Source of the DNA: Candidatus Deferrimicrobium sp.
GTDB lineage: Archaea; Asgardarchaeota; Lokiarchaeia; Helarchaeales; HEL-GB-A
Assembly: GCA_035531115.1 (NCBI GenBank)
Contig: DATKTP010000242.1
Location: forward strand, 1 to 10,876
Direction of reading: 5' to 3'
Length of the DNA: 10,876 nt
Shown here: positions 1-10,876 of the stretch, piece by piece
Layout: each line of letters starts with the position of its first letter
How positions within the stretch are numbered: the stretch's first letter is position 1
The notes under the pieces: generated by a model
Told to the model about the DNA's origin: nothing
Seen by the model: only the letters and a program-made list of their open reading frames with translations
Database searches by the model: none
Made by a program: the position numbers and the translations under genes

Positions 1-926
1 AAACTATCACTTATAACCTCCATTCTATTAATTAGTATTGTGAAATGGAATTTACCAGCTGAGATATCTTCTAATGAAATTTCATAAACTCTTTGATATT
101 CTTCACTTTCCCAACTATATTCTGTTTTATTAGAATAAATGAAATTTATTCTAATCTTTTGAAATGTTTTTGAATTCGAGAGAGTAATTTTAAAAATAGT
201 TTTTTCAAACGAATAATCAATAATATAAGTTCTCTTTCTATAAAATGCATCAGGATTTAATTCTAATTTGTCTAATAATTCCGAATCCTCACAGATTTTC
301 TTTGCATAATTTAATTCTGCAGGAGATCGAACAAGAATTTTCTCTATATATTTTAATTCGATTTTTTGGAAAATATCTACCTCAGCTTGTACAATAAGAC
401 ACATTTTTTTATATTCGTCATCATCCATAGAAATATATCTACCTTCTATCATTTTTCGCCTCCACAAATCGAAGTATTTCCATTCAATCTCCTCAAATGT
501 TTTTAAAATATCTTCAAAACTGGCAGATTTTGAAGACGTGAAATGAGCAGTCGTACTCCATATATTTTCGTTTAATAATATTTTTGGATTAATACACAAG
601 TAGATAGGAATGATTTTATGTTTGTCTAATTCATTATTCTTTATACCTTCTGTTTTATGAACCATTGGTGTCTTTATTGTGTAATATAGAGGTACATACT
701 CATCCTTATTTTTACCCTTTCTTTTATCAATCAAACTTGCTTCTGAGCCATTCTTAAATGTGATTTTATCCTCACCTATTAGTTTTCTTGAAAGAATAGC
801 TTTGGATCTTATGATTCCTTTTAAATTTTGAAGTGTGGTATAATGGATTAGATGAGAAATTCGTTGTTTCTCTAAAATTGCTTTAATTTTTATCCATTTT
901 AATTTTAAATTTGATAATATAAACAC
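1..926 (-). CDS. DarT-like (DUF4433-type) ADP-ribosyltransferase domain protein with an additional C-terminal region; 3' end runs off the window
   Basis: Not in the supplied track. Hand translation of the minus strand gives one stop-free frame from 926 to 1 (308 codons): (start)FILSNLKLKWIKIKAILEKQRISHLIHYTTLQNLKGIIRSKAILSRK...DEYVPLYYTIKTPMVH...WSTTAHFTSSKSASF...KKMCLIVQAEVDIFQKIELKYIEKILVRS... These match the three hallmark DarT/DUF4433 blocks: H-x-T-x3-NL..I...G.L; YVPFYF..x.PM; QAE-x-hydrophobic...I..I.V. More than 100 further residues (beta-rich, unrecognised) follow. The start is uncertain. The first canonical in-frame start is GTG at 926. An ATG at 930 with AGGG about 8 nt upstream is in another frame and stops after 15 codons. 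Confidence 0.7.
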   Translation of the reverse strand, partial: MFILSNLKLKWIKIKAILEKQRISHLIHYTTLQNLKGIIRSKAILSRKLIGEDKITFKNGSEASLIDKRKGKNKDEYVPLYYTIKTPMVHKTEGIKNNELDKHKIIPIYLCINPKILLNENIWSTTAHFTSSKSASFEDILKTFEEIEWKYFDLWRRKMIEGRYISMDDDEYKKMCLIVQAEVDIFQKIELKYIEKILVRSPAELNYAKKICEDSELLDKLELNPDAFYRKRTYIIDYSFEKTIFKITLSNSKTFQKIRINFIYSNKTEYSWESEEYQRVYEISLEDISAGKFHFTILINRMEVISDS

Positions 927-987
927 CCATTATTTTTCCCTATCTATTTCAAATACAAATACTATTAAAAATATGCTTGAAATGTAT

Positions 988-995
988 AAAAAAAA
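988..995 (-). terminator. Oligo-T (T8) tract on the minus strand; candidate archaeal-type terminator for the upstream operon
   Basis: A8 on the plus strand equals T8 on the transcribed minus strand. It lies 77 nt downstream of the AbrB-like stop codon and about 60 nt upstream of the DarT-like start. Archaeal RNAP terminates at oligo-T tracts. Not validated. Confidence 0.3.
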
Positions 996-1071
996 TTTAT
1001 CATAAGAGATTATTAATTTCTTGAAAATTTTTAAGAAGAAACGCCCATTATTACCAGATTAATATAATTTT

Positions 1072-1260
1072 TTATTCTAGGACCTTTTCAATGATAAGCT
1101 TATCGTCTTCAATCCTTATCGAAACATAAGTACCCTCTTGTACCTTAAATTCATTGGCAATCTTACTTGGGAGGACTACCGCAAGACTATTACTTATTTT
1201 AAAGACTTTCCTGACTTCACGATTCGCTGACAATTTGAATTCCTTCTTCTGCCATATCAC
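1072..1260 (-). CDS. AbrB/SpoVT (MazE-like) family DNA-binding protein
   Basis: 62-aa ORF. SNSLAVVLPSKIANEFKVQEGTYVSIRIEDDKLIIEKV fits the SpoVT-AbrB swapped-hairpin pattern (h-h-h-P-x-x-h...G-x-x-V-x-h...h-h-h-x-K). The start is either GTG 1260 (44-nt overlap with the upstream gene) or TTG 1233 (17-nt overlap, AAGGA about 7 nt upstream). Confidence 0.75.
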   Translation of the reverse strand: MIWQKKEFKLSANREVRKVFKISNSLAVVLPSKIANEFKVQEGTYVSIRIEDDKLIIEKVLE

Positions 1261-3070
1261 TTAACCCTGTGACAATGACATACTCGGTAACATCTTTGAT
1301 GTAATTTTTAATTATTTCGAATCTGGAGGGGTCATAGCTGGTAATGACTTCATCAATCACGAAGAAGGGAAAGGTGGGAACGAATTCTTCTTTCGCGGCT
1401 ACGAGGACTATTAAGGCAAGGGTGATGCGTTCGCTGGTGGATAACGCTTCAAACGGCCATTTATCAATGATCTTCCCCGCTTTTATCCTAGTAATAGAAA
1501 TCCTTCCATCCGTTTTAAGTTCTATATCTTTAAAATCCTTAAATTGCAATTCTTCGTAAATCTCATTGGCTCTTCGCTCAAATCTTTTGCATACAGAATC
1601 AATTAATTCGTCTTTCCTGATTGCAAGGTGCGAAATTAACCCTTCAATGAACCTGATCCGTTTTGTTAGCGCATCAGCGTCTTTGGTTTTTCCTCGCAGG
1701 GCTTCAATGTTTTCCTCATCCGAGATCGTTCTCTGCTTCAAGATTTCAATATTATTAATCAACTTTTCGCGTTTTTGCCACGTTTCAAATGTAGCTTTTT
1801 CTGAAAATTGGAAGAGCTTCTCTATTTCTGCTTCATACTTAGTTTGTTCTTGTTCCAATTCGGCTATTTCAGTTCTAAGTTTGTTCTTATCAAGCTCTCG
1901 ATTTTGAAGTGTGCTAGTTGTTTTGCGAAGATCAGTTTCAACTATGCTCAATTGCCTTTGTGATTTCTCTAGTTCGGTTTTTTTTCGCCCTAAATCTTCT
2001 ATCTCTCTAGTTTTTTGAACGATTTTATTCCCTAAGTCACTACTAGCTTTTTCATTTTTTCGTTGCCAATCTTGTAAATCTTTTAATGAAAGCGTCTTAC
2101 CACAGGCATAACATTGTGTTCCACCAGGAGCTAAGTCACCGTGTCGTTTAATCTTAACCCAATTATCATTTGCCGATTTAATTGCAGCTTGACACTTTGT
2201 ATTCTCGGTTTCCAGGGCTTTCAACTCTTGGTTGGTGTTGTTGGTGCTTTTCACAACTTTTTCAATTTCTTTTTCGATTAATGGATAATCAGCTTTTATT
2301 TCATCGACCAATTCTTGCTTGGTTTTGATTTGTTCCGCTAAAGCTTTAATTTGATCTTCTAAACTATCGAAATTCCCTTTCTTCTTCCGCAATTTGTCGT
2401 CTATTGCTCTCTTTTCTCCTATTTTTTCGTGGTACTTGTTCCTCATTTGTTGATCCGCTAACGCGTCTGTTTCATCCACTTGTGGTACGGTTTCAAGCTC
2501 TTTTTCCAATTCTGCAATTTCGTTTCTGCTCTTAAGCAATCGATCTTGTGTCATTTCCAATTGAGTTAAATCATCTCTGAAAATTTGGTGCTGTCTCAAG
2601 TAGTTTTTTTTCATTTTGTCTAAAGAGGAAGTAATAACATCAAAGAGATTACTATCAGAGATATTTTCAATAAAAGTCCTAATAGGTTTGCCCCGAAGTA
2701 TCTGATTTATGAGATCGTTATCGGGCGTTGCAAAACTGGTTAATTGCGCTTTATTCCCTGCTTCTAATGAAACATTTCCTTCAAAGCTGTAGAGATCGTT
2801 TCCAGCGCGTCTAAACCGTTTGTTCCAATCTATATTTTGGTTTGTCAATGAAATTTCGATAGTATCGTGCGCCCCTGTAAATAAATTCATTAAGAATCCT
2901 TTATTTTTTAAGTCAGGGTCATCCATTGTGAATAATTCTAACGCATTTATCAAACTCGTTTTTCCCGTAGCATTGGGAGCTTTAACTACATTCAACCCTT
3001 TATCAAATTCAAAAATTTCTTTATTGGCAAAAATACCGACATTTTCCACTTCTAACTTCAATTTACTCAT
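1217..3070 (-). CDS. Rad50/SMC-like ABC ATPase with long coiled coil and central CxxC zinc-hook-like motif
   Basis: 617 aa. The N-terminal head carries Walker A (VVKAPNATGKTSLINALE). About 400 aa are heptad-like, K/E/Q-rich coiled coil, interrupted at mid-length by GGTQCYACGKTLSLKDL (compare Rad50 hook C-P-x-C-G-R-x-L). The C-terminal head carries a signature-like LSTSERITLALIVLVA and Walker B FFVIDEV, then YVIVTGLSD where Rad50 has the His-switch (V-S-H-D). The start ATG overlaps the upstream stop (ATGA). Confidence 0.9.
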   Translation of the reverse strand: MSKLKLEVENVGIFANKEIFEFDKGLNVVKAPNATGKTSLINALELFTMDDPDLKNKGFLMNLFTGAHDTIEISLTNQNIDWNKRFRRAGNDLYSFEGNVSLEAGNKAQLTSFATPDNDLINQILRGKPIRTFIENISDSNLFDVITSSLDKMKKNYLRQHQIFRDDLTQLEMTQDRLLKSRNEIAELEKELETVPQVDETDALADQQMRNKYHEKIGEKRAIDDKLRKKKGNFDSLEDQIKALAEQIKTKQELVDEIKADYPLIEKEIEKVVKSTNNTNQELKALETENTKCQAAIKSANDNWVKIKRHGDLAPGGTQCYACGKTLSLKDLQDWQRKNEKASSDLGNKIVQKTREIEDLGRKKTELEKSQRQLSIVETDLRKTTSTLQNRELDKNKLRTEIAELEQEQTKYEAEIEKLFQFSEKATFETWQKREKLINNIEILKQRTISDEENIEALRGKTKDADALTKRIRFIEGLISHLAIRKDELIDSVCKRFERRANEIYEELQFKDFKDIELKTDGRISITRIKAGKIIDKWPFEALSTSERITLALIVLVAAKEEFVPTFPFFVIDEVITSYDPSRFEIIKNYIKDVTEYVIVTGLSDMAEEGIQIVSES

Positions 3071-3267
3071 GGTTCATCCCACCCATCCGCATATTTGTTG
3101 AGAATTTCCAACACTTTATCTTCGGCCACGTTGGGGAGGTGACCCGATTTTATTTTGTGTTGCTTGACGATTGAGAAGATTTCTCTCTCACACTCAACGA
3201 ACACGTCAGCTCCAGATTTCGAGCTTCCTGTAATATTTTCCTTGACTTTGGTTTTTCTTCTAGACAT
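3067..3267 (-). CDS. Small hypothetical protein (66 aa), translationally coupled to the Rad50/SMC-like gene
   Basis: ATG at 3267 is preceded by GGAGGT 6 nt upstream. The stop TGA overlaps the ATG of the next gene (ATGA at 3067-3070). No recognisable domain. Confidence 0.6.
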   Translation of the reverse strand: MSRRKTKVKENITGSSKSGADVFVECEREIFSIVKQHKIKSGHLPNVAEDKVLEILNKYADGWDEP

Positions 3268-3527
3268 CTACTAACCTCCAAAACTTTTTCAGGTATATCC
3301 CATTCGTGTAAAGGTTCAGCTACGAAAATATCTAAACCCTCATCGAATCTTTTCCTTAAACTCCATAACATCGCTAAAATTTCGCCATTTGATTCAGTTA
3401 AAAATACATCTGAACTTAATTTTTCGATAAAAAACTTATTTATATCTTGACGTCGTTTATCTTGATGCCAGCTCCAAATTATATCTTTAACTGTTGTATT
3501 TCTTATTTTTATTATTAAAAAGGTCAT
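3150..3527 (-). CDS. Hypothetical protein; 3' end uncertain (out-of-frame overlap with the 3067-3267 ORF)
   Basis: The track ORF 3150-3542 starts at TTG. I prefer the in-frame ATG at 3527 (MTFLIIKIRNTTVKDIIWSWHQDKRRQ...). The last roughly 39 codons overlap the next ORF in another frame and end in a low-complexity tail (SSQSSSNTK). The true stop may therefore differ, or there may be a frameshift. No recognisable domain. Confidence 0.45.
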   Translation of the reverse strand: MTFLIIKIRNTTVKDIIWSWHQDKRRQDINKFFIEKLSSDVFLTESNGEILAMLWSLRKRFDEGLDIFVAEPLHEWDIPEKVLEVSRCLEEKPKSRKILQEARNLELTCSLSVREKSSQSSSNTK

Positions 3528-3543
3528 AAAAAACCATCTCAAA

Positions 3544-3568
3544 AAATGTCGTCACAGTGACGACATTT
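3544..3568 (-). terminator. Perfect 12-bp-arm palindrome (hairpin) followed by a T-tract inside the operon; possible attenuator/terminator or protein-binding palindrome
   Basis: Plus strand is aaatgtcgtcac-a-gtgacgacattt. On the minus strand the hairpin begins at the last base of the AAA+ stop codon and runs into TTTTTT (rc of 3541-3546), then GAGATGG and the next start. Confidence 0.4.
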
Positions 3569-4278
3569 CACAATTCTTTTGACAGGATCGTGTCAATGTA
3601 TTGCTCGGTAATCAGTTTTTCAATCTCCCTAATTGTTTTGAAATCGCCCTTATCAATTTGCGATATCATTTGATCCGCATCCATCTGCAACTGTTTACAT
3701 TTGTTTTCAGCAATAATTTTGAGAGTTTCTTTAGTAGGAAAGGGAAATTCGATAGGATACAATCTGTCTTTAACTGCTTTATCTATTAATTCAAATCGAT
3801 TCGTCGTTAAAATAACTGAAATCTTAGATGTATCTACATTATCTAGGCAATGGAAGAATACGTTATTTTGAGCGATGTGCCACGATTCCCCCTTGATCCA
3901 ATCTCTTGTCGGAAAGACTGACTCACAATCATCTATGATAATAATCACGCGACCATAATTTTCTGCTTTCTTAAAAATTTCCGCTATCTGCCTCTCCGAT
4001 TCACCATAAAGAGATCGGGCAATATCTGAACCATCCACAAAAATGTAGGTAAAATTCAGAACATTGGCAAGAACTTTCGCTATGGTGGTTTTCCCGGTTC
4101 CCACCTCACCAAAAAAAATAAATCCTTTAATACCGTCCTTGATTTTGTATTTTTGTTGATAGTAAATAATCTTCTGGACTTTTTCGAGAATCGCAAGATA
4201 TTCTTGTCCAAAAACGGTATTTTTGGAGTAAGGATTATCTATCGGTTTTATGATGTTCAACTCTTCTTTTTTCTGCAT
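3568..4278 (-). CDS. Minimal classical-clade AAA+ ATPase (single AAA module, no recognisable N-terminal substrate domain)
   Basis: 236 aa. Motifs: Walker A GEVGTGKTT; pore-loop-1-like SLYGESERQI (compare K-aromatic-V-G-E-S-E-K of Vps4/FtsH/proteasomal ATPases); Walker B IIIIDDCES; sensor-1 ILTTN; SRH-like NRFELIDKAVKDR; C-terminal helical lid. GAGG lies in the 13-nt spacer upstream. Confidence 0.9.
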   Translation of the reverse strand: MQKKEELNIIKPIDNPYSKNTVFGQEYLAILEKVQKIIYYQQKYKIKDGIKGFIFFGEVGTGKTTIAKVLANVLNFTYIFVDGSDIARSLYGESERQIAEIFKKAENYGRVIIIIDDCESVFPTRDWIKGESWHIAQNNVFFHCLDNVDTSKISVILTTNRFELIDKAVKDRLYPIEFPFPTKETLKIIAENKCKQLQMDADQMISQIDKGDFKTIREIEKLITEQYIDTILSKEL

Positions 4279-4291
4279 TTAATACCGCCTC

Positions 4292-5149
4292 TTAATTTGT
4301 AGATCTTTTCTGTTGTCGAGATTGCTGTCTTGCGCGCATACGAATTAAGGCGCGTTCGTTCCATAATTGGATGAAATTCTGAACGTGTGGTGAAAAAATA
4401 ATTTTATTTCCATCTTTCTTAACTATCATTCTGATATCGGCATCTTTTACATTATTTCGCTCGATTGCCGTCGAGAAGCGATAGTAGGGGAAGCCCCGGT
4501 GAGTAAACTCGGCTCTAAGGTCTTCCAATAAGAGCTCGCCACCGTTATTTGAGGCAATTAAAATGCCAAAAATTAGGGGAATAAGTGCACTGATTCCTTT
4601 TTTTTCGATTCCAAGAGCAATCATCTTTCCCAGTGCGCTACCGAAGATTTCGTGTTCGATCCCTTTCGCTTGAATTTGGTCAAGGAAGTTATCCCAAATG
4701 GGGGTGAGTCGAACAAAAGCGGAAAACGGAGAATCACCTTTATTGTGGATAATTTCGAGAAATCCGTAATCTTTTAATGTTAACAATTTTTCAAAGATTT
4801 TTTTCAAGCTCCCGCATGCAGATCGGATAGTCATTATTGAAATCTTACCTTCCTCCGCTTTTTTTATCCGATCTTCAATTTCCCCGACTCTACCTGTCCT
4901 TTCGTATTGTATTCGATTTGTATCAAGATCGGCTCTAAGGGATTTTGCCTCAAATCGCTTTTTCAAGGTTAATATAAAGATAGTATTAATGATATTTTCA
5001 ATAGTTTGTAAGAGGGTGTATTCAGTATAACTGCTTAGTGATTGAACTCCAAACAATAGATTTATATTTTGAGTCTCTAGCAACTCTTTGATTATTGTGG
5101 CCAAGACTTCAACGAAATCTTGGTTTTCAGGGACATCCAAACCATCCAT
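4292..5149 (-). CDS. Uncharacterised protein, paralog B of the 5408-6214 product
   Basis: 285 aa, alignable end to end with the 268-aa product of 5408-6214. Shared blocks: LQTIENIIN, ERTG, SAC, L(S/T)PIW, GKMIALGIEKKGI, (P)(F/Y)xRF, ER-x-N, D(I/L)RMI. Basic C-terminal tail RMRARQQSRQQKRSTN. The start ATG is 2 nt after the histone stop, with GAGGAGAG immediately upstream. Confidence 0.85.
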   Translation of the reverse strand: MDGLDVPENQDFVEVLATIIKELLETQNINLLFGVQSLSSYTEYTLLQTIENIINTIFILTLKKRFEAKSLRADLDTNRIQYERTGRVGEIEDRIKKAEEGKISIMTIRSACGSLKKIFEKLLTLKDYGFLEIIHNKGDSPFSAFVRLTPIWDNFLDQIQAKGIEHEIFGSALGKMIALGIEKKGISALIPLIFGILIASNNGGELLLEDLRAEFTHRGFPYYRFSTAIERNNVKDADIRMIVKKDGNKIIFSPHVQNFIQLWNERALIRMRARQQSRQQKRSTN

Positions 5150-5151
5150 TA

Positions 5152-5388
5152 TTATCTCTCCTCTGGTTCAAGGGTGTACTTAAAAATTTCCTTTACCGCA
5201 TCTCGCACATCGGTATCGCGAATGTTTGTTCGACCAGATAAGTTTGCTAATTTCACAGCTTCACCGGCGATCATCTCTGCATGCTCCGTTAGAACATCTA
5301 AAAACAGCTTTTTTGCTTCTTTTGAGACCTGTTTTGCGCCGCTATTTTTTAAAATTCTATTAACCGCCGCTATACTAAAGTAACTCAT
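5152..5388 (-). CDS. Archaeal histone-fold protein (HMfA/B-like) with short acidic C-terminal extension
   Basis: MSYFSIAAVNRILKNSGAKQVSKEAKKLFLDVLTEHAEMIAGEAVKLANLSGRTNIRDTDVRDAVKEIFKYTLEPEER aligns without gaps to HMfB as I recall it ([66 protein letters not shown]). The track start is TTG 5391. I prefer ATG 5388, which has GAGGT 7 nt upstream. Confidence 0.9.
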   Translation of the reverse strand: MSYFSIAAVNRILKNSGAKQVSKEAKKLFLDVLTEHAEMIAGEAVKLANLSGRTNIRDTDVRDAVKEIFKYTLEPEER

Positions 5389-5407
5389 CAATAAAACCTC
5401 GCTTTTA

Positions 5408-6214
5408 TTAATATCCTAATTGGCGTAAACGCTTCTGAACTCTCTTATACCATTGATAGACTGCGACTGTTGAATGTTTCGCAAAGTAAACACGTTCCTC
5501 TGTTTTTGAGGGGATCATACGAAGGTCGGGATGTTTTTCGTTATCACGTTCAAGGACGCTGGCAAATCGGTGAAATGGAATGCCCTGTTCAACGTATAAC
5601 TCTTGAAACTCGCCATGTGATATCCAACCATCATCAAATGCCCTTTTCAAACTGAGGATGAGGGGTTTCAACGGTTTAATCCCCTTTTTCTCAATGCCCA
5701 ATGCGATCATCTTCCCAATTGCGCTACTGAAAATGTCGTGTTCATACCCCTGATTATGAATGTGATCAATCGTCCCATTCCAGATGGGAGATAATTGTAC
5801 AGTTGCAGAACCACCAGGAGTCTTTTCGATGATGATGAATTTTTCCTCGTGTAACTTATTCAGTTTCGCTTCAACGTCGGATAAGCCCGTGCAAGCACTG
5901 ATTAGATTGGATAAAAATATTTTGCGAGCCTCTACCCGTGCAAGCTTTTGCTGATACAGTTCTAATTGTCCCGTTCGTTCGAGTTCTTCTTTATTAGCAT
6001 CGATGTATTTGGTGAGACGGGTTTTCTCGTCAATGAGGTGGATATTTTGGTCGAAAAGTACATTAATAATGTTTTCAATGGTCTGAAGCGGCGACCAGAT
6101 TGTAAAACAGCTCAAAGATTGAATTCCCCTTAGTAATTCATAGTTCCCCTTTTCTAAACCCTCCCGAATTAACGGAAGTAACTCTTTAATGTAATGTTCC
6201 CAAACTGTACTCAT
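5408..6214 (-). CDS. Uncharacterised protein, paralog A (first gene of the operon)
   Basis: 268 aa. Shares the conserved blocks listed for 4292-5149. Basic C-terminal tail WYKRVQKRLRQLGY. AGGGGA lies about 6-8 nt upstream of the ATG. A long AT-rich non-coding region lies upstream. Confidence 0.85.
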   Translation of the reverse strand: MSTVWEHYIKELLPLIREGLEKGNYELLRGIQSLSCFTIWSPLQTIENIINVLFDQNIHLIDEKTRLTKYIDANKEELERTGQLELYQQKLARVEARKIFLSNLISACTGLSDVEAKLNKLHEEKFIIIEKTPGGSATVQLSPIWNGTIDHIHNQGYEHDIFSSAIGKMIALGIEKKGIKPLKPLILSLKRAFDDGWISHGEFQELYVEQGIPFHRFASVLERDNEKHPDLRMIPSKTEERVYFAKHSTVAVYQWYKRVQKRLRQLGY

Positions 6215-6489
6215 ACTTATCCCCTAAATTTTTCATAAAGAACATAAAATTTACCTATGAAGGTTATGGAGTTTATGTATATTGCATATATTTCTTATAT
6301 GATTTTATGTTTAACCTCGAATTATTTTTATCTTTTTAGTTATAGGTAGTAGTATATTCTATTTTAGAAAATTTAAATATTTCTTTTGTTTAAAGGAATA
6401 GAATGTTTAAATTATTCTAATAATTATAATAGATTCTGAATAAATATTCCTAAAAAAATTTTATAAACATAACTAGTTTAGAAAGTCGA

Positions 6490-6496
6490 TTATATA
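6490..6496 (+). promoter_or_regulatory. TATA-box-like element (TTATATA) positioned for a leaderless plus-strand transcript
   Basis: It is centred about 27 nt upstream of the ATG at 6520, which opens a 32-codon ORF (MTIKEINENLIWKGKPYIRIPSIIGLVYEVTI, 6520-6618). A purine-rich BRE-like stretch (gaaag) lies just upstream. It is divergent from the operon. The region is very AT-rich, so chance TATA-like strings are common. Confidence 0.25.
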
Positions 6497-7149
6497 CGCT
6501 ATGTGGCTATGGACATAGAATGACCATAAAAGAAATTAATGAGAACCTAATTTGGAAAGGAAAACCTTATATTCGGATCCCTTCAATTATTGGGTTGGTT
6601 TATGAAGTTACCATCTGATGAAAATCTTTATTTTGAACTTGAAAAATTACCGAAGTGTATTGACCTGAAATAAGAATTTCCAATTGTTGTTAATTTGAAA
6701 TGCAAAATATAACTTAAAGAAAAGCGTATTGGAGCTATATTTATCGAAAGATTCATACGTTCAACATAGAAAAATCGATATTTGGCAGTAACTTGAGTGA
6801 CTCTTTTATAAATTGCATTAACTTCTTTTCTAAAATATCGAGATATTCGAGGATATTCTTTTTATAAGGCAATATTGGAATTATTATTTCATTCGGACCG
6901 ATTTCGTTCAATTCTTTATCTAATGGTATCGATGAATCCAAATTTCCAAAAAGTGTGTTATAATGGACAATAATATCCCTTATTCTGATTGCTTCTTGAA
7001 TCCATTGCGTGATATTATTTTTAATGAGATCTATAAGCTTAAATCTGTTTATATAAAGAATATTTTGAATTCTTCGATATTTCTAAAGTATTTTTTAAAT
7101 AAAAGTTGTTTTCTAGTAAAAAGTTGTTTTTTTCCCAAATAATTATTGT

Positions 7150-7971
7150 TTAACTAGATTTTTCTCGTTTTTGAATAATCTCAAAGTGCCGTGCCACTTG
7201 ATCATAATCGCTTTTATAGATATGGAGACTATTGCTGAAATCCACGTATTGGATGAATTCGAGGTTCAAACTGCTTGATAACCATCTCCCAAACTCAGTA
7301 AAACCCAAAATATTAGCCCCAACGGCTTTGTACAAATCGCGGCTCCTCCATGTTGTCTCTAGAACCATATATTTATTTTCTATAATCCGAATCCAGAGTC
7401 TTTGTAAACATGGAGCACCAGAAATAATTAAATCTTTATATGGCGCCCAAGTAGTTACCTGCAATTTACGACTAATTGGTTCTTCTTTCGCTTTTTCAAT
7501 GAGCATTTCTATTTGATTAATACCTTCATCTGCCTTGAACTCTTTTTCGGTAATTCCATCAAAGATTTTGATGGTGGGTCTCTTCTTTTGTTTCAAGAGT
7601 TCTGCATGTTTGGGCTGCACCAAGCCCCATGAAAACAGCCTCTCATGGTACGTGTATGATTCTACGCCCTCTAAAACCCGGTGATCCATATCTCCATCAA
7701 TCAAATCCCGCACATATTGTTTTTCGCGGTAGGGCTTTTTTTTATCTGGACCGGTCACAAACATGGAAACACTGACAAAATCTTTCCGGGAGAAACGGGG
7801 TTCTTGCAAAGGATTCATGACATTAACTAACACGGAAGCTTCTTTGCTTAATTCATCGGAATAATGCTGTTCAATCTCAATACCTTTGTACCAAACCGCT
7901 TCCACGGCTTTTTCCCAAGCCTCGCCACAAGTTTCAGCCTCAACAAAGAGGATAGGTAAATGGGGTATCAT
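7150..7971 (-). CDS. thyA: Thymidylate synthase, ThyA family (divergent archaeal type)
   Basis: Alignable by eye to E. coli ThyA core motifs: [10 protein letters not shown] ~ [33 protein letters not shown] ~ [34 protein letters not shown] ~ LAPCHAFFQF (catalytic Cys); [13 protein letters not shown] ~ QRSCDVFLGLPFN; NSLHIY ~ DTHLY. The track start is TTG 7980. I prefer ATG 7971, which has GAGGT 10 nt upstream. Confidence 0.85.
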   Translation of the reverse strand: [273 protein letters not shown]

Positions 7972-8208
7972 TTTCTTCAAGACCTCATCCTAGGAGTTAT
8001 GAATCTACGGGAATGAAGGATCTATAAAAATTTTATTCTCATATTAGAAGAAAAATTGCAGAAAAATTGGAATTTTATCGGTGGCTGTTTCCCTTTTCCC
8101 CCTTTTCTTCAAAGAATTTTTATTTTAATAAAGTAAAGTTTTAAAGAAGTGATAAGAATGAAACCAAATGAAGACTCGTTATAGAAAACATTTATTCACG
8201 TGGATTGA

Positions 8209-8217
8209 AATTATAAC
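8209..8217 (+). promoter_or_regulatory. TATA-box-like element upstream of tRNA-Arg
   Basis: aattataac is centred about 30 nt upstream of the mature tRNA 5' end at 8244. AT-rich context, so low specificity. Confidence 0.3.
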
Positions 8218-8243
8218 AATAGATTTAAAAAATCAAACGTAAT

Positions 8244-8338
8244 GGGCCCATAGCGTAGTTGGATAACGCGCAGGCCTTCGGACCATTCGATGGGAAGAGA
8301 GCCTGAGGTCCAGGGTCCGAATCCCTGTGGGCCCGCCA
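8244..8338 (+). tRNA. tRNA-Arg (anticodon TCG) with canonical-position intron; CCA encoded
   Basis: Hand fold: acceptor GGGCCCA/TGGGCCC; D arm GCGT-AGTTGGATA-ACGC; anticodon stem CAGGC/GCCTG with loop C-T-TCG-G | 18-nt intron (8282-8299) | A; variable AGGTC; T arm CAGGG-TCCGAAT-CCCTG; discriminator G; then CCA. Confidence 0.9.
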
Positions 8339-8542
8339 ATTTTATAATTTATTTTTTGCTGAAAAACCCAGAAATTTATTCTTATTATTATGAATTTCAT
8401 AAGCGCGTTTGTTAAATCGAAAATCATCCTTTTTTAATTGATTTTATGCAGAAATTTTAAATAGAATTTCACATTTCCCTTACCAAGGACAGTCTTAAAA
8501 AACAAGTCCGCTATAGCTAGGAAAATATAAGAACGCAATAGT

Positions 8543-8740
8543 CCCTGGGTAGTTCAGTTTGGTAGAACGTCGGGCTGTAGAGATAAGTACCGCATAATTG
8601 AGATGGGATCGCGTCCCGCCTAGGATATTATGTCAGTAGCAGCGACCCGGTAAGATGGGCTTTCGGGATAGGAACCCGAATGTCGCTGGTTCAAAAGGGT
8701 TGGAAGTGGAATTCCTCCCCTGAAATTCCGGCCCCAGGGA
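8543..8740 (+). tRNA. tRNA-Tyr (anticodon GTA) with two introns (about 93 nt at 37/38 and about 31 nt in the T-loop)
   Basis: Exons give CCCTGGG TA GTTC-AGTTTGGTA-GAAC G TCGGG-CTGTAG[8581-8673]A-CCCGA ATGTC GCTGG-TTCAAA[8696-8726]T-CCGGC CCCAGGG A. The C1:G72 pair plus A73 is the archaeal Tyr identity set. The spliced sequence closely parallels M. jannaschii tRNA-Tyr as I remember it. Splice junctions are ambiguous by 1 nt. BHB motifs not verified. Confidence 0.85.
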
Positions 8741-8877
8741 CTTCTTCCTAATTCTCCTTGGTAGGGGGATTTCATACTTTATACGGGTCAATTATAATTC
8801 ATTATAAAATTAATAAGTCCCCCTATCTATACGAAATATTAAAAAATAGATGTAAATTAATTATACGAGAACGAAGG

Positions 8878-8885
8878 TATATTTA
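8878..8885 (+). promoter_or_regulatory. TATA-box-like element upstream of the tRNA-Asp/tRNA-Lys pair
   Basis: TATATTTA is flanked by GG on both sides and centred about 24 nt upstream of the tRNA-Asp 5' end. tRNA-Lys follows 25 nt after tRNA-Asp, consistent with co-transcription. Confidence 0.3.
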
Positions 8886-8904
8886 GGCAATCATTATAGA
8901 AAAA

Positions 8905-9013
8905 GCCTCGATAGTGTAGTCCGGCGATCATCTGGGACTGTCACTCCCAGGACTGACGAAAACGCCGTTTTGGTCAGTGGGATACCCGGGTCCAAATCCC
9001 GGTCGGGGCGCCA
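8905..9013 (+). tRNA. tRNA-Asp (anticodon GTC) with a non-canonical intron in the variable-loop region; CCA encoded
   Basis: Acceptor GCCTCGA/TCGGGGC (one G-U). D arm GTGT-AGTCCGGCGA-TCAT, the weak D stem typical of Asp tRNAs. Anticodon arm TGGGA-CTGTCAC-TCCCA. Then 36 nt (8950-8985) where 4-5 are expected, containing the hairpin ACTGAC-G-AAAAC-gcc-GTTTT-G-GTCAGT. T arm CCGGG-TCCAAAT-CCCGG. Discriminator G, then CCA. Confidence 0.8.
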
Positions 9014-9038
9014 CTTCTATTCTGAAGAGGTTATTTGT

Positions 9039-9132
9039 GGGCTCGTAGCTCAGCTAGGCAGAGCGTCGGGCTTTTAAATCAGAAATTGATAAAGAAACCC
9101 GATGGTCGCGGGTTCAATTCCCGTCGAGCCCG
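9039..9132 (+). tRNA. tRNA-Lys (anticodon TTT) with canonical-position intron
   Basis: Acceptor GGGCTCG/CGAGCCC; D arm GCTC-AGCTAGGCA-GAGC; anticodon stem TCGGG/CCCGA with loop C-T-TTT-A | 20-nt intron (9077-9096) | A; variable TGGTC; T arm GCGGG-TTCAATT-CCCGT; discriminator G. No encoded CCA. Confidence 0.9.
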
Positions 9133-9520
9133 TCATCCTTACCTATTTGCCAATATTAACTTTTCTATTCCCTATTTTATAATTGGAGCATTTTTATTCG
9201 AATATTAATCATAAACCTCGGTTTACGTCCTAATTAAGGTTGAATTATAAAAAAGTAACGCAAATAACTCAAGAAGAAAGGTAAGAAGCAGATTCAAATA
9301 TTTCGCTATAACTTTAAAAGTTGCAAGAAATTCGAAGAATTTATAAGGAAAATAATTTTTTATAATGAAGAAATACCTATCTAATTCCTTTTTAATAGAA
9401 ATTTAAAAATAACAGAAATTCTTTAATTAGAGAAAATTATGAGGTCTGAGAAGCAATATTGCTTAATAATTTATTATTTTATCTAATCAGAAACCTGTTT
9501 GGCTATAGTGGTGTATCCAA

Positions 9521-10876
9521 ATGACGAGTAGTAATGAAAATTTAAAGTTAGATAATTGGGTTTTAATGGGCGCTTTCTTTAAAGAAAAAGGGTTGGTGCG
9601 CCAACATTTAGATTCATATAATGTATTTATTGAAAAGACAATCCAAGAAGTAGTTGATGAAACTGCGCGAATTGAACCCGATATCCCCCAGTACTTCGTG
9701 AAGCTCGGGCGAATCAATATAGGTGATCCCACGATACGGGAAGCAGATGGATCTGTTAAACCCATATTCCCCATCGAAGCCCGTATCCGCAATTTGACAT
9801 ATTCGGCGCCCCTGTATTTAGAAATGATCCCGATTCGTAAAGATGAACGGACCGGAATTGAAATCGAAGGGGAAGTAGTAAACGTCTATATTGGTCGACT
9901 TCCAATCATGCTTCGGTCCAATGTCTGTCTTTTGAAAGATATGAGTGATGAGGAATTAATTAAACATGGAGAGGATCCCTTGGACCCGGGTGGTTATTTC
10001 ATAATAAATGGGTCTGAGCGGGTTCTTGTTACGCGCGAAGATTTAGCACCCAATAGGATATTGAGTGAGGAAGCAAGTAAAAGTTTATCTGCGAGTTATG
10101 TAGGAAAAGTTTTTTCAACTTCACACGGGTTTAGAGCCCCAGTTACGCTGGAGCAGCGTAATGATGGGACCCTTCGAATATCATTTCCCTCAGTTCCAGG
10201 AAAAATTCCTTTCGCGATTTTAGTTCGAGCGCTTGGTTTAGTGACGGATAAAGAAATTAGTGATGCAATTTCAGATGATCCACTTGTTAGGCGCCAGTTA
10301 ATAGCTACATTAGAGGCCGCTGCGCCCATTTATATCCCAAAGGATGCGCAAGGTACCATCGATAATGCGTTAGACTATATTGGAAAGCGAGTTGCGGTAG
10401 GGCAGACAAGGGAATATCGATTACGGCGAGCTGGTCAAGTTTTAGATAGATACCTACTTCCCCACATTGGCAGAACCAATGCAGATCGATTAAAAAAAGC
10501 GTATTATCTTGGACAGATGGCCCAGCGTATCGTAGAATTACAGATTAATAAGCGTATTCCAGATGATAAAGATCATTATGCAAATAAACGACTGAAATTA
10601 GCTGGAGATCTTCTTACCAGCCTATTCCGTGTCGCTTTTCTTAATCTTACTAGAGATATCAAATATCAACTCGAACGAACAGCCGTCAGAGGGCGGGCGC
10701 CAAATATTAAAACAGCAGTCCGCGCAGATGTCGTTACAGAACGATTACGCCATGCTTTAGCAACGGGCAATTGGGTAGGAGGTAAAGCAGGGGTCAGTCA
10801 ATTACTTGATCGGACTAATTATATTTCTGCTTTAAGTCATCTTCGTAGAGTCGTTTCTCCTCTTAGCCGAAGCCAG
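9521..10876 (+). CDS. rpoB: DNA-directed RNA polymerase subunit B (Rpo2), N-terminal 452 codons; continues beyond the window
   Basis: Not in the track because it runs off the right edge. Hand translation from ATG 9521: MTSSNENLKLDNWVLMGAFFKEKGLVRQHLDSYNVFIEK...EARIRNLTYSAPLYLEM...GEDPLDPGGYFIINGSERVLVTREDLAPNR...DDKDHYANKRLKLAGDLLTSLFRVAF...ATGNWVGGKAGVSQLLDRTNYISALSHLRRVVSPLSRSQ. These are signature blocks of archaeal/eukaryotic second-largest RNAP subunits. GGTG lies about 9 nt upstream of the ATG. Confidence 0.95.
   Translation, partial: MTSSNENLKLDNWVLMGAFFKEKGLVRQHLDSYNVFIEKTIQEVVDETARIEPDIPQYFVKLGRINIGDPTIREADGSVKPIFPIEARIRNLTYSAPLYLEMIPIRKDERTGIEIEGEVVNVYIGRLPIMLRSNVCLLKDMSDEELIKHGEDPLDPGGYFIINGSERVLVTREDLAPNRILSEEASKSLSASYVGKVFSTSHGFRAPVTLEQRNDGTLRISFPSVPGKIPFAILVRALGLVTDKEISDAISDDPLVRRQLIATLEAAAPIYIPKDAQGTIDNALDYIGKRVAVGQTREYRLRRAGQVLDRYLLPHIGRTNADRLKKAYYLGQMAQRIVELQINKRIPDDKDHYANKRLKLAGDLLTSLFRVAFLNLTRDIKYQLERTAVRGRAPNIKTAVRADVVTERLRHALATGNWVGGKAGVSQLLDRTNYISALSHLRRVVSPLSRSQ

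Follow-up and report, generated by a model that had tools for sequence, protein, structure and literature searches.

A rare family of predicted tandem winged-helix proteins in a conserved operon with an SMC-like ATPase

What is the role of two related proteins whose genes enclose a histone gene and stand upstream of the gene of an SMC-like ATPase? This question is raised by a stretch of 10,876 nucleotides (nt), which as a whole is called the window here (assembly GCA_035531115.1, contig DATKTP010000242.1, positions 1 to 10,876). Its minus strand carries, in reading order, the open reading frames (ORFs) of XA (268 amino acids (aa); 5408..6214; GenBank HUY01063.1, 'hypothetical protein'), of an archaeal-type histone-fold protein (5152..5391) and of XB, the 285-aa paralogue of XA (4292..5149; HUY01061.1, 'hypothetical protein'). 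The original prediction, made from the letters of the window, had described XA and XB as an ancient pair of tandem winged-helix (WH) proteins flanking the histone gene and had likened them to the KITE subunits of SMC complexes. Here, we report that proteins of this family, collectively called X, are encoded in an operon whose order, X, AAA+ ATPase, S125, S66 and archaea-specific SMC-related protein (ASRP), does not vary among 20 loci, neighbouring genes overlapping at start/stop or lying only a few bases apart. On balance, we favour the view that X is a dimeric structural accessory subunit of an ASRP-centred complex that would also hold the AAA+ protein, S125 and S66.

Paralogy of XA and XB

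XA and XB align over nearly their entire length, with 99/263 identities in BLASTP (38%, also given as 37.8%; E=1e-56; residues 6-264 versus 10-272), and their ORFs indeed lie on either side of the histone gene. Two peptide islands are identical in both proteins, namely the 13-residue GKMIALGIEKKGI (XA 5678..5716; XB 4592-4630) and LQTIENIIN (XA 6062-6088; XB 4985-5011), while their DNA agrees in 28/39 and 21/27 bases, respectively, all differences being synonymous. Such synonymous differences inside identical peptides show that the pair arose by an ancient duplication kept under purifying selection and not by recent copying or gene conversion. In all these points, end-to-end paralogy, gene arrangement, conserved islands and age, the original prediction has held.

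An orthologue of XB from another sample (P0001) shares 65.5% identity with it, which makes the XA/XB duplication older than the split of these lineages. Both window proteins are only ~29-31% identical to either of the two X paralogues of Promethearchaeota, which share 30% identity with each other, and neighbour-joining places XA with XB and P0001, apart from both Promethearchaeota copies. Since the identity of XA to XB exceeds that to the Promethearchaeota pair and the tree groups them likewise, we infer that X was duplicated independently at least twice, once in the window lineage and once in Promethearchaeota, with both copies kept side by side. This repeated retention of paralogue pairs makes it plausible that X acts as a dimer, with a homodimer having turned into a heterodimer.

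Predicted fold of X

The AlphaFold2 (AF2) model of XA, computed on an alignment of 43 homologues, reached a predicted local distance difference test (pLDDT) score of 94.7 and a predicted template modelling (pTM) score of 0.91. It supersedes an earlier, poor model on a 2-sequence alignment (pLDDT 63) together with the Foldseek matches obtained from that model. In the new model, N-terminal helices (residues 4-95) are followed by a first WH unit (WH1; residues 84-141, 5792..5965), two connecting helices (residues 143-175), a second WH unit (WH2; residues 180-243, 5486..5677) and a C-terminal helix (residues 246-265, 5420..5479). DSSP assigns the helices (H) and strands (S) H84-95, S99-100, H101-107, H114-123, S127-131 and S137-141 to WH1, and H180-191, S197-199, H200-209, H214-226, S~235 and S241-243 to WH2, giving both units the topology H-S-H-H-S-S. 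The two helix-turn-helix segments that had been read from the sequence (XA 104-143 and 201-244) correspond to the H2-H3-hairpin parts of these units, and the predicted winged-helix folds thus appear twice in the model. The Arg/Lys/Gln-rich C-terminal tail proposed at the same time stands only in part: it is basic, with 6 Lys/Arg among the last 25 residues of XA and 7 Lys/Arg plus several Gln in XB, but is modelled as a confident α-helix and not as a disordered tail.

The most conserved motif of the family, F.S..GK.L...G, to which GKMIALGIEKKGI belongs, lies on a helix between the two WH units. In WH2, R216, R223-D224, K227 and I231-R232 are conserved family-wide, and the basic residues among them (R216, R223, K227 and R232) are situated on the recognition helix and the wing.

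A Foldseek search of the PDB with the model returned many WH matches of 60-70 residues (probability 0.99; root mean square deviation 2.3-3.9 Å), including SqrR, SmtB/ArsR, MarR and the WH of ORC2, at 16-20% sequence identity and without a significant E-value. These best local matches are single WH domains of unrelated proteins; they show the fold of one unit, the unit of XA that was aligned not being given. A relative of the whole XA chain was not found in the PDB (best E=0.12), and the BFVD viral fold search with X returned nothing significant. In a profile search of the PDB, sub-threshold matches at positions 94-163, in and around WH1, pointed to the N-terminal WH of DnaD (E=0.022), TFE and PadR.

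A rare family in an operon of invariant order

With an XA/XB profile, exhaustive searching of 1.84 billion representative proteins by HMMER yielded 49 clusters (50% identity), 38 of them at E<=1e-10, with nearly all members between 240 and 300 aa long. The X family is therefore rare. Neither XA nor XB matched Pfam (models to 2025), NCBIfam release 20 or PADLOC v2 (E<=0.1), and the 43 family members matched none of these collections either. Together with the PDB searches, this agrees with the original prediction, which had found no named family; a confident homology to an unrelated characterised family did not emerge either. A word-indexed search of 5.8 billion proteins gave no match for XA and a single one for the 43-member profile. 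The searches of IMG/VR and PLSDB made here found no X, PLSDB returning only generic AAA matches in unrelated contexts. An X-based pattern scan of the GTDB species-representative genomes found nothing, and that of JGI metagenomes two contigs (L001 and L002).

In GTDB, the operon was recovered with the better-conserved AAA+ gene as a probe. Among the 27 loci obtained, 18 have X directly upstream of the AAA+ gene and, after the latter, S125, a small overlapping ORF and the gene of an ASRP that has a CxxC in its centre. The other nine (Nitrososphaerales and two Dehalococcoidia) have a more distant AAA+ gene and none of the other operon genes. As L001 and L002 were reached through X itself, the synteny seen there is not circular with the AAA-based search. 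L001, the longer of the two contigs (7.3 kb), reads histone, X, AAA+, a 128-aa protein, a 61-aa overlapping ORF, ASRP and AbrB, with the histone and X genes overlapping by 4 bases.

The archaeal hosts among the 18 loci are Promethearchaeota (2), Heimdallarchaeota (2), Thermoplasmata/Thermoplasmatales (3), Methanocellales, a Nanoarchaeota metagenome-assembled genome (MAG) with two copies, a contig labelled Nitrosotalea and an unclassified archaeon. Six loci belong to bacteria, all Dehalococcoidia/Chloroflexota, and one of these is on a complete 3.3-Mb chromosome (OZ242014.1). The mapping of the family and its neighbours that had been called for thus extends over Asgard archaea, Thermoplasmata, Nanoarchaeota, Methanocellales and Dehalococcoidia, and the postulated link of X to the Rad50/SMC-like protein is upheld by strict synteny in very different phyla. 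Beyond what had been predicted, the AAA+ protein and the two small proteins are equally conserved partners, the histone belongs to one subclade, and X is mostly a single gene.

The flanks of the operon are not conserved, and most of the 123 flanking proteins are metabolic or housekeeping proteins. Defence-type neighbours are few: a DarT-like gene in the window, and DarT and DarG in one Nanoarchaeota locus (L016). These DarT neighbours may hint at a defence-island context.

Several individual loci deserve mention. In Chloroflexota, the operon X-AAA-S125-S66-ASRP without histone was seen in L017 (OZ242014.1, 9236-13114), L018, L020, L021, L025 and L030. The small genome of the Nanoarchaeota MAG (JAHIPG01) holds two divergent copies of the whole operon on separate contigs (L016 and L023), and in L016 a DarG and a very divergent DarT (7899-8879, minus strand) are found 274 nt upstream of the operon. 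In one Promethearchaeota locus (L012), the region directly downstream of the operon (8155-14353) contains two unknown genes (273 and 253 aa) followed by a second SMC/Rad50-like gene (665 aa), and also a 76-aa remnant matching the C-terminal end of SMC_N, a ScpA-like gene and a bona fide ScpB, so that three SMC-type systems are found within 12 kb. A contig of IMG/VR (L040, IMGVR_UViG_3300014656_006077, 9752-11016) carries a Dehalococcoidia-type copy with a 5'-truncated AAA+ gene, S125 and S66 and without X, abutting a block of large ORFs that resemble phage structural genes; a prophage may have been inserted into this operon.

Proteins encoded beside X in the operon

The 617-aa ATPase of the window (1217..3070, minus strand) matches the ASRP model NF045487 over model positions 1-592/593 (E=1.1e-86; 291.8 bits, just under the curated cutoff of 300). 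It possesses an N-terminal P-loop, a CxxC zinc hook (C320-C323), an LSTSE signature at 543 and the Walker B motif FFVIDEV at 569, and it aligns in full length with annotated haloarchaeal ASRPs in tblastn (96-100% coverage). By its sequence, this protein is an ASRP, Rad50-like and with a zinc hook. The Walker A and B motifs, the signature motif and a single central CxxC are intact in the ASRPs of all loci. The window ASRP also matches the PADLOC model of LmuB along its whole length (E=3.2e-16).

The AAA+ ATPase (3568..4278, minus strand; 236 aa; PF00004 E=1.7e-23) is a single-domain protein of the classical clade, whose best NCBIfam matches are CDC48, PAN and CdvC, the N-domain being absent; PADLOC models of IetA and TRIP13 are matched as well. 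The window protein, 58% identical to its L001 homologue, contains a Walker A motif GEVGTGKT, a Walker B motif IIIIDD-CES and a pore-loop-like SLYGESE, and the pore-loop-like YGESE is found in some other members. In all 27 homologues, which were themselves found by this pattern, the Walker B motif reads IDD[AC]ES, with Asp in place of the catalytic Glu; this replacement may mark a slow, switch-like ATPase.

S125 (3150..3527, minus strand) is a 125-aa alpha/beta protein without a named family, for which jackhmmer found matches in 21 loci; DUF7855 was matched weakly, by 3 of the 18 members searched. S66 (3067..3267, minus strand), a 66-aa ORF in the +2 frame relative to S125, overlaps the 3' end of the latter by 118 nt (3150-3267), and its stop codon overlaps the start codon of the ASRP gene. 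The overlapping ORF, 53-93 aa long, recurs in 19 of 20 related operons with its arrangement and with peptide motifs such as (M)L.EFERE..G.I+KG. A programmed -1 frameshift between S125 and S66 is less likely, as no slippery heptamer is conserved and most loci have an in-frame ATG, GTG or TTG for S66. For the same reasons, S66 is probably a separate, unannotated fifth conserved gene and not a frameshift product. The last gene of the window operon encodes a 62-aa DNA-binding protein of the AbrB/MazE fold (1072..1260, minus strand; PF04014 E=5.1e-11) and overlaps the 3' end of the ASRP gene; an AbrB-fold protein is present in 5 related operons. From XA to AbrB, the minus-strand genes of the window are spaced by 2-25 bases or overlap, and no terminator-like site was found on the coding strand within the operon.

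For ClsN, a member of the ASRP family, the existence of partner proteins, loaders and unloaders was listed as unresolved in a 2022 review (PMC9764264), and in the study that established ASRPs as a family no consensus neighbours were found (PMC9389158). RdfA (rod-determining factor) is a known partner of haloarchaeal ASRPs, one of which acts in cell shape (PMC10869688). On three haloarchaeal and Methanohalobium plasmids (L036, L037 and L038), each ASRP gene adjoins rdfA, located either upstream or downstream, which indicates that ASRP clades differ in their dedicated partner genes.

The histone gene

The window histone (78-79 aa; PF00808 E=6.5e-10; NF043032 E=2.6e-15) is a singlet between the two X genes. 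Compared with HMfB, it has substitutions at R19, K53-T54, H49 and L62. Only one clade, the window's own (L001/L002, L007-L012 and the window), has a histone gene directly before X; there it adjoins or overlaps X in 9 distinct operons (11 loci including duplicate contigs). In Promethearchaeota it is a fused doublet of 155-156 aa with two histone folds (L011 7852-8322; L012 2056-2523), followed by two tandem X genes; in the other operons of this clade it is a singlet of 79-103 aa standing before one X, and some of these singlets have N-terminal tails rich in Lys. The histone doublet beside two X genes, together with the 4-base overlap in L001, suggests an X:histone unit of 2:2. In a 2024 survey of prokaryotic histones, a term search for SMC turned up no link to a histone operon (PMC11390915).

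Comparison with known SMC-type systems

X resembles the KITE proteins (ScpB, MukE, JetB/MksE and Nse1-Nse3/MAGE) in having two WH units per chain of ~200-280 aa, the second of which is taken from the AF2 topology, and in lying in an operon with an SMC-superfamily ATPase. X may also be dimeric, with a paralogue pair in the window as in Nse1/Nse3. Unlike the KITE proteins, X has an additional N-terminal helical region of ~95 residues and a C-terminal helix, and its operon has no recognised kleisin and a short zinc-hook ASRP instead of a hinge-type SMC or MukB. None of 43 X members matched the Pfam models of ScpB, MukE, MAGE or Nse1, while the same ScpB model gave E=1.5e-33 on the true ScpB that the Promethearchaeota genome of L012 carries separately from X, 6 kb downstream of the operon. 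With hhalign, the X profile reached probabilities of only 0.8% against Asgard ScpB and 0.7% against E. coli MukE. Foldseek listed MAGE-A11 with a probability of 0.25 (TM 0.20) and a MukBEF chain with 0.16, and no ScpB was named among the top 50. The search for ScpB, MukE or Nse folds has therefore turned out against the proposed KITE-like identity: no homology was found in Pfam, hhalign or whole-fold comparison, and the partner ATPase is of the zinc-hook type. To our knowledge, zinc-hook Rad50-type ATPases do not use kleisin or KITE subunits.

No operon product matched the kleisin family, and X itself was rejected as a member (no Pfam match; hhalign 0.4% against MukF and 0.2% against the Asgard ScpA-like protein; a compact model without a low-confidence linker). 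Likewise, X was rejected as a relative of RdfA (hhalign 0.2%, no conserved Cys cluster comparable to the Cys-rich C-terminal motif of RdfA, no NCBIfam match), and so was S125 (hhalign 0.07%).

The window ATPase shares with coalescin ClsN of Sulfolobus and Sph1-4 of haloarchaea the ASRP type with a central CxxC hook, and, as in Sph-type ASRPs, a dedicated partner gene lies nearby (PMC10869688). In contrast to the RdfA-Sph3 pair, however, its clade has four conserved partners (X, AAA+, S125 and S66), with or without a histone, and bacteria have it too, despite the family's designation as archaea-specific. In Lamassu (LmuB, LmuC, LmuA) and Wadjet (JetABCD), too, small accessory proteins accompany a short SMC-like ATPase, and the operon is horizontally mobile. 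Unlike in these systems, no LmuA-, LmuC- or JetD-type effector or nuclease was found in the X operon, and its AAA+ protein and histone have no counterpart in them. PADLOC returned no match for X, S125, S66 or the histone.

A published description of this operon was not found. The general principle of an SMC-like ATPase working with winged-helix accessory proteins is already known; new here are an unnamed family of tandem winged-helix proteins and an unusual set of ASRP partners that includes an AAA+ protein and a histone.

Possible role of X

The view that X is a structural accessory subunit of an ASRP complex starts from the fold model of X, the invariant synteny with its translational coupling and the intact ATPase motifs, and from these we infer the following arrangement. 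X would form a dimer, as the heterodimer XA/XB in the window and as a homodimer in most genomes. The ASRP, encoded four genes downstream of X, would dimerise through its CxxC hook, and the X dimer would dock on or between the ASRP heads and DNA, thus taking the job that KITE and kleisin subunits have in SMC complexes. The basic face of WH2 and the basic C-terminal helix might contact DNA or a histone dimer. The AAA+ protein would assemble, load, unload or recycle the complex, and S66 could be a stoichiometric ASRP-binding peptide, as suggested by its stop codon abutting or overlapping the ASRP start codon. One subclade would add a histone-fold dimer, and some operons an AbrB-fold protein. The module would be horizontally mobile and would act in DNA compaction or entrapment. 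It could target foreign DNA, in the manner of Wadjet, Lamassu and Smc5/6, or the chromatin of the host, in the manner of coalescin. A chromatin-organising role by analogy with coalescin fits the histone and the chromosomal setting; restriction of foreign DNA fits the rare and patchy occurrence across domains, the presence of more than one copy in a single genome, the DarT genes nearby and the matches to LmuB, IetA and TRIP13, though no effector nuclease was found.

Some observations weigh against this view. With isoelectric points between 4.5 and 9.6 among its members, the family is not one of uniformly basic DNA binders. The profile search with the WH2 third of XA gave no WH match and only EF-hand noise, and thus it is the topology of the AF2 model that suggests the identity of WH2. 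XA is modelled as one compact globule without the flexible linker of kleisins, and as X has no similarity to KITE or kleisin proteins beyond a generic WH, 'KITE-like' could apply to it only as an analogy. The histone is missing from about half of the operons, including all bacterial ones, and is therefore not essential to the function of X. Finally, an ASRP partner need not be related to chromatin, given that haloarchaeal ASRPs use RdfA and one of them acts in cell shape.

A bolder version of the structural reading is that the operon encodes a new SMC-like holocomplex, in which a non-KITE tandem-WH dimer clamps the heads and DNA, the AAA+ protein loads or recycles the complex, the histone dimer is an integral DNA-wrapping subunit, and the module, present in Asgard archaea, was passed on horizontally to bacteria. 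We regard this version as possible, though rather unlikely. If true, this would be an SMC-type machine with a histone built in, the first of its kind.

Almost the same weight, if slightly less, is given to the idea that the whole module is a mobile system of defence or plasmid restriction, in which the ASRP would sense or entrap foreign DNA by analogy with Wadjet, Lamassu or Smc5/6 and X would be the DNA- or partner-binding subunit, a doubtful proposal that is nevertheless compatible with the structural role favoured above. It would account for the rare and patchy spread over Asgard archaea, Thermoplasmata, Nanoarchaeota, Methanocellales and Dehalococcoidia with AAA+ identities of 46-60% across hosts, for the non-syntenic flanks and the two copies in one Nanoarchaeota MAG, for the DarT-family genes beside the operon in the window and in L016, there with DarG, for the PADLOC matches of the ASRP and the AAA+ protein, and for the phage-like region next to the truncated copy in L040. 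However, neither a nuclease nor another effector is part of the conserved core, PADLOC has no match for X, S125 or the histone, X was not seen in the searches of IMG/VR and PLSDB, and the flanking proteins are mostly housekeeping or metabolic, the window operon itself being located between thyA, tRNA genes and rpoB. If X were instead the equivalent of a kleisin, its N-terminal helices would bind the coiled-coil neck of the ASRP and WH2 with the terminal helix would bind the head cap, thereby bridging the heads, with S125 and S66 as adaptors. In kleisins such as ScpA and MukF, a helical domain at the N-terminus precedes a winged helix at the C-terminus, as it does in the X model, the operon offers no other recognised kleisin candidate, and a MukBEF chain is in the Foldseek list, although at the low probability given above. 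Still, this explanation is unlikely in view of the single compact body without a long flexible linker, the hhalign values against MukF and the ScpA-like protein and the zinc-hook type of the ATPase, and S66, translationally coupled to the ASRP, is at least an equal candidate for binding the neck or head.

Two further explanations concern X and its immediate neighbours. X could be an adaptor or chaperone for histones, presenting the histone dimer to an AAA+ unfoldase or depositing it on DNA. The adjoining or overlapping histone genes in 9 distinct operons, the co-occurrence of the histone doublet with two X genes and the Lys-rich tails of some operon histones agree with such a role, as does the AAA+ protein, since other members of the classical clade are protein unfoldases. 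As the histone-less half of the operons keeps X, AAA+, S125, S66 and ASRP, histone handling is not the ancestral or general function, and we consider this explanation improbable. Least probable of all is that X is an ordinary winged-helix transcription factor of the operon or of other genes, whose closeness to the SMC-like gene is merely regulatory. Its best structural matches are the ArsR/SmtB and MarR repressors, and the conserved basic residues of WH2 also speak for this reading. These matches span only 60-70 residues, however, and X, with 270 aa, two WH units and ~95 N-terminal helical residues, differs from repressors of ~100-150 aa. Moreover, X is always co-oriented and translationally coupled within the operon, divergent paralogues are retained together, several members are acidic (isoelectric point 4.5-5.7), and the separate AbrB-fold protein is a better candidate for a regulator.

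Genomic setting of the window

The window further carries thyA, a DarT-like gene, a 5' fragment of rpoB'' and three long tRNA genes. The RpoB'' encoded by the fragment at 9509-10876 (plus strand) is 65-74% identical to those of Promethearchaeota, Sifarchaeia, Thorarchaeota and Heimdallarchaeota. This identity, the archaeal histone and the intron-bearing tRNA genes identify the contig as a chromosomal Asgard piece that was mis-binned in the MAG of the bacterium Candidatus Deferrimicrobium sp., and a viral origin of the window is ruled out by the rpoB'', thyA and tRNA genes aboard. The three tRNA genes, detected with Rfam at 8244-8335, 8905-9010 and 9039-9132 (plus strand), are 92-106 nt long, which implies introns; ARAGORN reported one of the three, without a called anticodon. 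The thymidylate synthase-like protein (276 aa; 7150-7980, minus strand) scores 117 bits with the methanogen-type ThyA model, whose cutoff is 174.55; with 201 positions in that model, the window protein seems to have extra sequence compared with that family. The DarT-family gene, for a toxin that ADP-ribosylates single-stranded DNA, occupies 1-927 (minus strand), immediately downstream of the operon, and is cut off by the end of the contig. The intergenic region upstream of the operon holds no convincing repeats or motifs resembling loading sites, and a scan for bacterial-type promoters gave background level only.

Implications

No branch of the SMC superfamily is less well understood than the ASRPs, which include coalescin and the Sph proteins, and the operon described here gives one ASRP clade a concrete and strictly conserved set of partners, namely a tandem winged-helix protein, an AAA+ protein and two small proteins. 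The presence of the module on a complete Dehalococcoidia chromosome indicates that 'archaea-specific' SMC-related proteins cross the boundary between domains. In Asgard archaea and Thermoplasmata, the recurrent link to a singlet or doublet histone would join histones and SMC-like ATPases, the two main archaeal chromatin systems, in one genetic unit.

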